Shown piece by piece: positions 63,039-64,000 of a stretch of 64,000 nucleotides of DNA; the stretch's first letter is position 1; the number at the start of each line of letters is the position of its first letter. The notes below the pieces were generated by a model. It saw only the letters and a program-made list of their open reading frames with translations, searched no databases and was not told where the DNA came from. The position numbers and the translations under genes were made by a program. Source of the DNA: Escherichia coli (GTDB lineage Bacteria; Pseudomonadota; Gammaproteobacteria; Enterobacterales; Enterobacteriaceae); NCBI RefSeq assembly GCF_044324785.1, contig NZ_CP172127.1; one strand, 5' to 3'.

Positions 63039-64000
63039 ATGCCTTTAGATTTAAGTAAAACTTTAGTTATTGGCATCAGCGCGACTGCGCTTTTTGATAT
63101 GAGTGAATCAGATCACATGTTTCGCGAAACCTTTGTGACTGATCCTGATAGCGCCATTGAAAAATACCGCGCTTATATGCTAGAACACGAAAACCAACCT
63201 TTACAGCCCGGAACAGGCTACCCCTTAGTCAAAGCGTTGCTGGGTCTGAACCAGTACCGTCAACCGGATGATAAATCGCCGTTGGTTGAGGTTGTTGTGA
63301 TGTCACGTAACAGCCCTGATACCGGTATCCGTGTTCTGAATACTATTCGCCATGACAGGCTCGATATCACTCGATCGGCCTTTACGGCAGGCGAAACCGT
63401 TGCCGATTACCTTGATGCCTTTGATGTGGATCTGTTTTTAACGACCAACGTCGAGGATGCGCAAAAGGTGATTGATTCCCGATTCTGCGCCGCTGCAATC
63501 CTGAAAGATCCTCCTTCCGACGCATCTGATATCCCGGAAGGGCAAGTGCGCATTGCTTTTGACGGCGACGCGGTACTTTTTTCCGATCAAAGCGAACTGG
63601 TTTATAAGACCCAAGGAATGGCTGCCTTTCATGCTCAGGAAGACGCGCAGCAGGATATCCCTATGGAAGAGGGGCCTTATGCCACTTTGCTAAAAAAAAT
63701 AGCCAAGCTTCAGGAACGATTGCCGACCCGCGTTGAGTATTCTCCTGTTCGTATTGCGCTGGTGACAGCCCGAAATAGCCCTTCGGAAATGCGCGTTATT
63801 AAAACGCTAAGAAGCTGGGGGGTATATGTCGATGAAGCTTTTTTTCTTGGCGGTGTAGAGAAAACAAAAGTTCTGAAGGCGTTTAAGCCACACATTTTCT
63901 TTGACGATCAGGATGTACATTTGATCGCGGCTGCAAAGGTAGTACCTTCTGGTAAAGTACCTTATGCCAGTAACTCCGAACTGGCAGAACGTGAAGCATC
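63039..64000 (+). CDS. cN-I-like 5'-nucleotidase family protein; 3' end beyond the window
   Basis: Open frame of 320 codons from ATG 63039 to the window edge, so absent from the track; contains IAFDGDAVLFSD (DxD phosphoesterase motif as in cytosolic 5'-nucleotidase I); weak RBS. Confidence 0.55.
   Translation, partial: MPLDLSKTLVIGISATALFDMSESDHMFRETFVTDPDSAIEKYRAYMLEHENQPLQPGTGYPLVKALLGLNQYRQPDDKSPLVEVVVMSRNSPDTGIRVLNTIRHDRLDITRSAFTAGETVADYLDAFDVDLFLTTNVEDAQKVIDSRFCAAAILKDPPSDASDIPEGQVRIAFDGDAVLFSDQSELVYKTQGMAAFHAQEDAQQDIPMEEGPYATLLKKIAKLQERLPTRVEYSPVRIALVTARNSPSEMRVIKTLRSWGVYVDEAFFLGGVEKTKVLKAFKPHIFFDDQDVHLIAAAKVVPSGKVPYASNSELAEREA

Follow-up and report, generated by a model that had tools for sequence, protein, structure and literature searches.

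A 5′-nucleotidase gene of the cN-I family in the cargo slot of a defence-gene hotspot of Escherichia coli

At the right-hand end of a 64,000 nt stretch of Escherichia coli DNA (contig NZ_CP172127.1; the window hereafter), a 5′-nucleotidase gene lies divergently next to the gene for a SIR2-domain anti-phage protein, Dsr1. This arrangement raises the question of whether the two genes form one system, whether the nucleotidase by itself serves defence or counter-defence, or whether the two merely reside in the same place. We compared the window with homologous loci (L numbers; coordinates that follow an L number refer to that locus) from E. coli and other species. The gene probably encodes a HAD 5′-nucleotidase of the cytosolic 5′-nucleotidase I (cN-I) family, which is carried as independent, optional cargo of an enterobacterial island integrated at tRNA-Leu and is not a partner of Dsr1.

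The nucleotidase gene and its product

The reading frame begins with the ATG at 63039 and runs through 320 sense codons to 63998, followed by two bases at the window edge; the start coordinate and length given by a previous reading of the sequence alone (the sequence-only reading) are right. The word "partial" in that reading is an overstatement because the gene annotated in E. coli relatives has a length of 966 bp (321 codons and a stop), so that the window copy is short by only 4 nt, namely the final base of codon 321 plus the stop codon. Four contigs encoding a Dsr1 100% identical to that of the window (L110-L113) harbor the complete 321 aa nucleotidase, identical to the window open reading frame (ORF) in 320 of 320 residues, and the disrupted frame that the sequence-only reading named as a possible refutation is absent from these same-lineage copies. 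The ORF is an intact, essentially complete gene. It is already annotated as a 5′-nucleotidase in RefSeq, and its presence is not in itself a novel finding. Against eight other E. coli alleles, the ratio of nonsynonymous to synonymous substitution rates (dN/dS) of the nucleotidase was 0.02-0.06, indicative of strong purifying selection and to be compared with 0.02-0.055 for HsdM/HsdR and 0.20 for Dsr1. The gene and the segments of its product are located as follows.

63039-64000, + strand: 5′-nucleotidase coding sequence (PF06189 / PADLOC PDC-S08), from translation, Pfam, PADLOC and the full-length copies of relatives
63039-63518, + strand: N-terminal half, residues 1-160, a degenerate HAD-like copy without the catalytic Asp, from BLASTP against the C half
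63519-64000, + strand: C-terminal catalytic HAD half, residues 161-321
63561-63575, + strand: HAD motif I, D175-G-D177-A-V179 (nucleophile Asp and general acid/base Asp), from sequence; invariant in 22 homologues
63765-63767, + strand: HAD motif II, T243 within VTARNSP, invariant in the 22 homologues
63861-63863, + strand: HAD motif III, candidate Lys K275, invariant in the 22 homologues and assigned to the motif from HAD topology
63903-63908, + strand: HAD motif IV, D289-D290 (Mg2+ ligands) within FFDDQ, invariant in the 22 homologues

The family assignment and the phosphoesterase motif IAFDGDAVLFSD (residues 172-183), both proposed in the sequence-only reading, were confirmed by a profile hidden Markov model search and by alignment. 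Residues 1-312 match positions 1-300 of 302 of the Pfam profile PF06189 ("5-nucleotidase") at 396.4 bits (cut-off 28.2; E=7.4e-119), which is the only Pfam domain matched in the protein, and the motifs are invariant in the 22 homologues. NCBIfam has no model for this protein. All four HAD motifs (DxDx[TV], S/T, K and DD) are intact in the C-terminal half. The N-terminal half is homologous to it (BLASTP E=1e-6), and the protein consists of two HAD-like, Rossmann-like halves in tandem. The N-half counterparts of the catalytic motifs lack the acidic residues: LVIGISATALFD stands against IAFDGDAVLFSD, VVVMSRNSP against IALVTARNSP and DLFLTTN against HIFFDDQ, that is, GISATALFD, MSRNSP and FLTTN replace FDGDAVLFS, TARNSP and FFDDQ. 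Across the 22 homologues, 61 of 160 positions are invariant in the N half and 71 of 152 in the C half. The nearly equal conservation of the degenerate and catalytic halves suggests that the former binds a ligand instead of serving only as a scaffold.

The nucleotidase resembles vertebrate NT5C1A/B (cN-IA/IB) in belonging to the same Pfam family over its whole length and in sharing the DxDxV motif, but the gene studied here is bacterial and island-borne. Vertebrate cN-IA acts on AMP and deoxynucleoside monophosphates (dNMPs) and is activated by ADP. The assignment of NT5C1A to PF06189 and its relation to HAD proteins have been described (PMC5098729). No solved structure was detected for the nucleotidase or for vertebrate cN-IA/IB by sequence search or in the literature. 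The closest solved fold is that of AphA, a class B acid phosphatase, which is single-domain and periplasmic, covers the catalytic half only and gave no detectable sequence match to the nucleotidase.

The cargo slot and the neighbour Dsr1

A copy of the nucleotidase gene is present in ~100 of 5,426 complete E. coli genomes, with alleles from 98% down to 65% nucleotide identity. The statement of the sequence-only reading that K-12 does not encode the gene is consistent with its rarity in these complete genomes. We inspected the locus in 15 E. coli records. In all 15, the nucleotidase lies in an inserted element and has type I restriction-modification (RM) genes or their remnants within ~5 kb. 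In 13 of them (alleles of 84-98% nucleotide identity), an integrase or its remnant adjoins the nucleotidase directly or via a gene for a phosphorothioate (PT)-dependent SBD-HNH nuclease, and the two records with the 65% allele have a distant integrase fragment at most. The visible attachment sites are tRNA-Leu, -Phe, -Sec or -Thr, and one copy is on a plasmid. Beyond the window edge, L110-L113 continue with a ScoMcrA-type SBD-HNH nuclease gene (291 aa), a tyrosine integrase gene (422 aa) and the chromosomal ahr gene, and tRNA-Leu is located between the integrase gene and ahr in complete genomes. The features to the left of the nucleotidase in the window are as follows.

52060-58349, + strand: type I RM genes, the left flank of the cargo slot, from ORFs, the annotation of homologous loci and Pfam labels in L110
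52060-55476, + strand: hsdR, from the ORF
55540-57174, + strand: hsdM, from the ORF
57171-58349, + strand: hsdS, from the ORF
58371-59057, + strand: gene for a 228 aa protein, co-resident with dsr1 in the slot, also in L001 and L110-L113
59098-62889, - strand: dsr1, SIR2-domain anti-phage protein of 1263 aa, in the variable cargo slot, from NCBIfam NF041818 and SIR2_2
62890-63027, no strand: cargo-specific part of the divergent dsr1-nucleotidase intergenic region
63028-63038, + strand: GGAT(A)... ribosome-binding stretch, left boundary of the block shared by islands that differ in cargo, from the upstream alignment

The interval between hsdS and the nucleotidase varies from record to record. 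It contains Dsr1 and the 228 aa protein in the window and in L001, and proteins of 582 aa and 88 aa in E. coli W. Elsewhere it is occupied by a 181 aa protein, a helicase with a 421 aa protein, a carbon-nitrogen hydrolase with a 115 aa protein, an IS5 element, a 529 aa SIR2 protein (PDC-S25), a 580 aa protein, a Septu-like pair of AAA ATPase and HNH proteins (PDC-M01, PtuA), a 355 aa protein and others; at least 10 other cargo sets take the place of Dsr1 in the island. The ten upstream regions that we aligned are homologous only from the ribosome-binding site onwards, ~12 bp short of the ATG, and are unrelated further upstream. Therefore, the promoter region belongs to the cargo. The same island type also exists in the form hsdRMS-SIR2(PDC-S25)-integrase, devoid of both the nucleotidase and the SBD-HNH gene, which rules out the nucleotidase as an "anchor" gene of the island backbone. 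The nucleotidase is an independent, optional cargo in the hsdS-to-integrase slot of a hotspot that exchanges defence genes.

Selection on the nucleotidase clearly differs from that on the adjoining SBD-HNH gene. The latter, located just downstream, is a pseudogene with an internal stop in five inspected islands (L003:10044-10919, L004:10044-10919, L005:10044-10919, L092:9044-9919 and L101:10069-10944), in all of which the nucleotidase is intact.

The neighbour is identified as Dsr1, scoring 1670 bits against the NCBIfam equivalog model NF041818 (cut-off 1400) and matching the Pfam domain SIR2_2. If the two genes formed a dedicated system, the nucleotidase as functional partner of Dsr1 might, for example, remove NMN or AMP so that NAD+ is not rebuilt after cleavage by SIR2, or remove a product that inhibits Dsr1. 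Three observations favor such a system, and the last two of them also speak against a full independence of the nucleotidase from SIR2 genes. First, the start codons of the divergent genes are 149 bp apart (62890-63038), in agreement with the ~150 bp on opposite strands of the sequence-only reading. Second, the Dsr1 allele of the window occurs in 14 of the 5,426 genomes, with the nucleotidase adjacent in all 14. Third, the gene for the unrelated SIR2 protein PDC-S25 also adjoins the nucleotidase divergently, both in E. coli and in Yersinia artesiana. As the 14 genomes share one island of 97-98% identity, they represent effectively a single event. PDC-S25 accompanies the nucleotidase in 8 genomes, and at least 22 of the records listed have PDC-S25 but no nucleotidase.

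The distribution of both genes argues against the partnership. Dsr1 is missing from ~86 of the ~100 nucleotidase-positive E. coli genomes. Conversely, three other Dsr1 lineages (P0157, P0146 and P0240) have no PF06189 gene within 4-6 kb; the lineages examined are a prophage-borne one in E. coli (48% identical), one in a P. aeruginosa integrative conjugative element and one in an Enterobacter TerB/BrxC-like island. The sequence-only reading had suggested looking for SIR2 genes beside homologues elsewhere, and none was near any of 78 other species-level loci, the Y. artesiana pair with PDC-S25 being the case noted above. Dsr1 and the nucleotidase are paired in only one island lineage, and both NCBIfam and PADLOC model Dsr1 as a single-protein system. 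As the other Dsr1 lineages and the 78 species loci lack the pairing, the adjacency of dsr1 and the nucleotidase gene is co-residence in a cargo slot and not a two-gene system. We regard the dedicated system as highly improbable and largely refuted by the distribution. The specific link to SIR2 that had been entertained does not hold as a partnership: we reject it from both sides of the pair, by the distribution, by the break of homology at the ribosome-binding site and by the islands that retain a SIR2 gene and an integrase without the nucleotidase.

Several features of the slot are of interest in their own right. No PADLOC model matched at least six of the cargo sets found between hsdS and the nucleotidase: the 582 aa and 88 aa proteins of E. 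coli W (L002:12852-14859), the 580 aa protein (L008:7156-8898), the 454 aa carbon-nitrogen hydrolase with the 115 aa protein (L005:7236-8940), and the 355 aa (L101:7840-8907), 421 aa (L004:7217-8482) and 181 aa (L003:8335-8880) proteins. Because Dsr1, PDC-S25 and PDC-M01 occupy the same place, these sets are candidates for undescribed defence systems, and the E. coli slot is a convenient place to look for new ones. In the window, the 228 aa protein (58371-59057) has no Pfam or PADLOC match. Its gene lies between hsdS and dsr1, convergent with the latter, in all copies of this island lineage (L001 and L110-L113); between the window and L001 it is 82% identical in nucleotide sequence (dN/dS 0.16), next to a dsr1 of 97.8% identity. 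Either a cargo gene of its own that evolves fast or an accessory to Dsr1 would fit these features. The G+C content is 0.32-0.38 over hsdS, the 228 aa gene and dsr1 (57000-63000) and 0.46-0.55 in the flanks including the nucleotidase, which fits a recently imported cargo beside a compositionally different nucleotidase. A promoter and terminator scan of 62700-63200 found no consensus promoter, and the dsr1-nucleotidase intergenic region gave nothing meaningful in Rfam and contains no repeats.

Relatives in other species, phages and plasmids

The PF06189-type family is very large: 7,994 of 8,000 scored candidates were found at E<1e-5. A scan of species-representative genomes yielded 80 loci. In several unrelated hosts the nucleotidase again adjoins defence genes. 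In Rahnella, ZorA-B-C-D (Zorya), the nucleotidase and an integrase follow one another in this order; in Alicyclobacillus, a DrmD-like helicase and type III Mod/Res precede the nucleotidase; in Pseudoalteromonas, it is located between hsdR-M-S and an NsnB/AriA-like AAA ATPase. On the P. putida plasmid pKF715A, the order is integrase, nucleotidase, GmrSD-like DUF262 protein (HEC-05), VWA protein, PP2C phosphatase and kinase, and on a Vibrio plasmid the nucleotidase lies among Hhe, HEPN-associated, GIY-YIG and AbiH genes. Neighbours of 19 loci in the close clade (65% identity or more) matched 310 PADLOC models, compared with 28 for an equal-sized Firmicute sample (E<=1e-10); this count is crude, as many models represent one family and MutY matches a nicking-endonuclease model, and serves only to contrast samples of equal size. 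In a neighbour-joining tree, the defence-linked copies are concentrated in one gammaproteobacterial clade and are also scattered elsewhere. Of the proteins that we saw in these islands, the nucleotidase is the most conserved. Its simultaneous recurrence in distant hosts, next to six or more defence systems that are unrelated to one another, is unusual for defence cargo.

In Lachnospiraceae, the homologues (45-49% identical) are core genes with a conserved housekeeping synteny: comEC, holA, DUF1653, nucleotidase, SfsA-MutY fusion, GT2 glycosyltransferase and glyA. The sequence-only reading held that its suggestion of a defence function would fall if homologues were ordinary core genes unrelated to defence; this applies to the Lachnospiraceae homologues and does not apply to the defence-associated close clade. 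As a separate observation, the SfsA-MutY fusion of Lachnospiraceae starts ~15 bp after the nucleotidase, and the run is found in 26-30 loci (L039-L089; e.g., L079:9355-12717). This DUF1653-nucleotidase-SfsA-MutY run suggests that the ancestral function may have lain in the sanitation of nucleotides or DNA.

In a counter-defence function, which the sequence-only reading had also raised, the nucleotidase would work for the island or for a phage and might, for instance, destroy the nucleotide signals of host immunity. An integrase adjoins the nucleotidase in several island types, and phage T5 has a dNMP monophosphatase of its own, mutations of which alter sensing by Clover (PMC12265719). Against this function, relatives are encoded in only 3 of 50,697 phage records (tblastn) and 45 of 72,556 plasmids, core-genome copies exist, and cyclic or oligonucleotide messengers are not known to be cleaved by HAD phosphomonoesterases. 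A role for the element itself is thus very doubtful, and we reject a phage-derived counter-defence gene because phage records almost never encode the family.

Defence-candidate status and possible role

The nucleotidase family is already catalogued as a defence candidate: the window protein matches positions 15-318 of 323 of the PADLOC model PDC-S08 with 443.7 bits (E=7.5e-134). PDC candidates are predictions based on the occurrence of a gene inside BREX, DISARM or type I RM systems, and PDC-S08 is not among the seven validated systems and is not mentioned in the text (Payne et al., bioRxiv 10.1101/2024.01.29.577857). Like the founding examples of PDC-S08, the gene of the window has type I RM genes nearby, but it stands beside the hsd operon and not inside it. 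This association, the basis of PDC-S08, was found in all 15 inspected E. coli records and in only 6 of the 80 species-level loci, within 10 kb.

The activity of the protein can be proposed from the HAD and cN-I families. D175 would attack the 5′-phosphate of a (deoxy)nucleoside monophosphate ((d)NMP) with Mg2+ to give an aspartyl-phosphate, whose hydrolysis would release the nucleoside and inorganic phosphate. The degenerate half may form a regulatory nucleotide-binding site, by analogy with the activation of vertebrate cN-IA by ADP. Most likely, the enzyme would act by itself to drain or sanitise the pool of (d)NMPs, and one possible route is the destruction of dNMPs that phages recover from degraded host DNA. 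In genomic terms, and by association, a real anti-phage benefit from the nucleotidase is a tentative proposition that we hold short of an even prospect. If the gene is protective, it would add a route at the monophosphate level to nucleotide-depletion immunity, linked to a human enzyme family.

Other points weigh against our reading. We found no functional study of any bacterial PF06189 protein or of PDC-S08 in the searchable literature, and we infer the substrate and regulation of the nucleotidase. By Pfam, the protein contains no sensor domain besides the degenerate half. Its conservation is extreme for a defence gene, with 72-84% identity in Shewanella, Pseudoalteromonas, Photobacterium, Azotobacter and Desulfomicrobium; the RM association is infrequent among the species-level loci; and the Lachnospiraceae copies are core genes. 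Ordinary genes, e.g., those for response regulators, LptFG, def and PMSR, are also frequent next to the close-clade copies. The one other mention of PDC-S08 that we found, and its sole phenotypic correlate, is a survey of P. aeruginosa, in which the strains carrying PDC-S08 are split 50/50 between phage-resistant and phage-susceptible (PMC10855318).

Much of the same evidence would be expected of a metabolic passenger, an ordinary 5′-nucleotidase for nucleotide homeostasis or house-cleaning that was captured by integrative islands, its defence neighbourhood reflecting hitch-hiking. The core-genome synteny of Lachnospiraceae near MutY, holA and glyA, the housekeeping neighbours in the close clade, the identity maintained across classes, the lack of a sensor domain and the even split of the P. 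aeruginosa strains all fit such a passenger. It accounts less readily for the recurrence of the gene, in unrelated hosts, beside defence systems as unrelated as Zorya, RM of types I and III, Hhe/AbiH and GmrSD-like, for the strong purifying selection kept in islands in which the adjoining nuclease decays, and for the PADLOC curation, which excluded obvious non-defence functions and retained the nucleotidase family. We consider the passenger a serious contender with a somewhat less than even chance.

In a more specific form of the protective role, the nucleotidase would be a single-gene anti-phage effector, in which the pseudo-HAD half senses a nucleotide raised by infection and the catalytic half destroys canonical or phage-modified dNMPs. 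Phages such as T-even, T5 and T7 would be starved, and the RM, Zorya or NADase cargo of the hotspot would be reinforced. Human cN-IA would then have a counterpart in bacterial immunity, but we consider such an effector unlikely.

Alternatively, the nucleotidase may sanitise the nucleotide pool for modification-aware immunity: modified or damaged dNMPs from degraded DNA would be dephosphorylated and barred from re-incorporation. The substrates would be m6dAMP, hm-dCMP, phosphorothioate-derived or oxidised nucleotides, which would otherwise expose the host genome to its own modification-dependent nucleases. Such nucleases adjoin the gene in three independent forms, the ScoMcrA-type SBD-HNH protein, the GmrSD-like DUF262 protein 31 bp downstream in P. 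putida and the DUF262/HrgA proteins of the 65% allele, and the Firmicute linkage to the SfsA-MutY fusion points in the same direction. House-cleaning by a HAD nucleotidase has a precedent in E. coli YjjG (cited in PMC12715507). Against these points, the argument is one of association, the SBD-HNH partner is often a pseudogene next to an intact nucleotidase, many loci are without a modification-dependent nuclease, and the extreme conservation suggests a universal substrate. We consider this modification-aware function improbable.

Among known anti-phage systems, HAD phosphatases have a precedent in the PUA-Cal-HAD and CARF-HAD (Chp) effectors, HAD-fold Mg2+ phosphatases that act on nucleotides and protect by depletion of the nucleotide pool. 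Their target is the gamma-phosphate of (d)NTPs, and they work together with a sensor (PUA or CARF) and partner enzymes, whereas the nucleotidase belongs to a different HAD family, acts on monophosphates by family annotation and is without a sensor domain. We found no fusion or operon with a PUA, Calcineurin-CE or CARF partner; the neighbours are Dsr1 and the SBD-HNH nuclease. In concept, the nucleotidase also resembles the anti-phage dCTP deaminase, dGTPase, Clover CloA and T5 Dmp, in which a change of the deoxynucleotide pool decides the outcome of infection. The dCTP deaminase, dGTPase and CloA have unrelated folds and act on triphosphates, and Dmp, a dNMP monophosphatase, is phage-encoded and absent among the tblastn matches in the phage collection.

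Some minor observations concern related loci of E. coli. The 65% allele (28 genomes; L009:7967-10500 and L093:6967-9501) is preceded at a distance of 56 bp by a same-strand gene for an HrgA-like protein; downstream lie a "5-fold beta-flower" protein gene and then hsdR-S-M and a DUF262 protein gene. This apparently fixed arrangement differs from that of the leuX islands. The commoner E. coli Dsr1 lineage (L102-L109:3532-9828; 48% identical to that of the window) is borne by a prophage, whose integrase adjoins a conserved gene for a 225 aa HAD-family hydrolase downstream of holD (DNA_III_psi) and an acetyltransferase gene. This hydrolase, which we take from its position to be the house-cleaning nucleotidase YjjG, is without the PF06189 domain, and we regard its neighbourhood to the Dsr1 prophage as a coincidence of the attachment site. 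Two chromosomes labelled "DH5alpha" (4.83 Mb; NZ_CP026085.1 and NZ_CM135829.1) carry the nucleotidase allele of the E. coli W type, 97.5% identical to the window as in W, LY180 and KO11FL, and look like mislabelled strains of the W lineage rather than K-12 derivatives. Finally, the E. coli IncI plasmid NZ_CP133855.1 (L098:766-4070), which is conjugative and carries resistance, harbors a 40% identical PF06189 gene between fosA10 and the ISVsa5 transposase gene, which was presumably mobilised together with fosA from the chromosome of another species.

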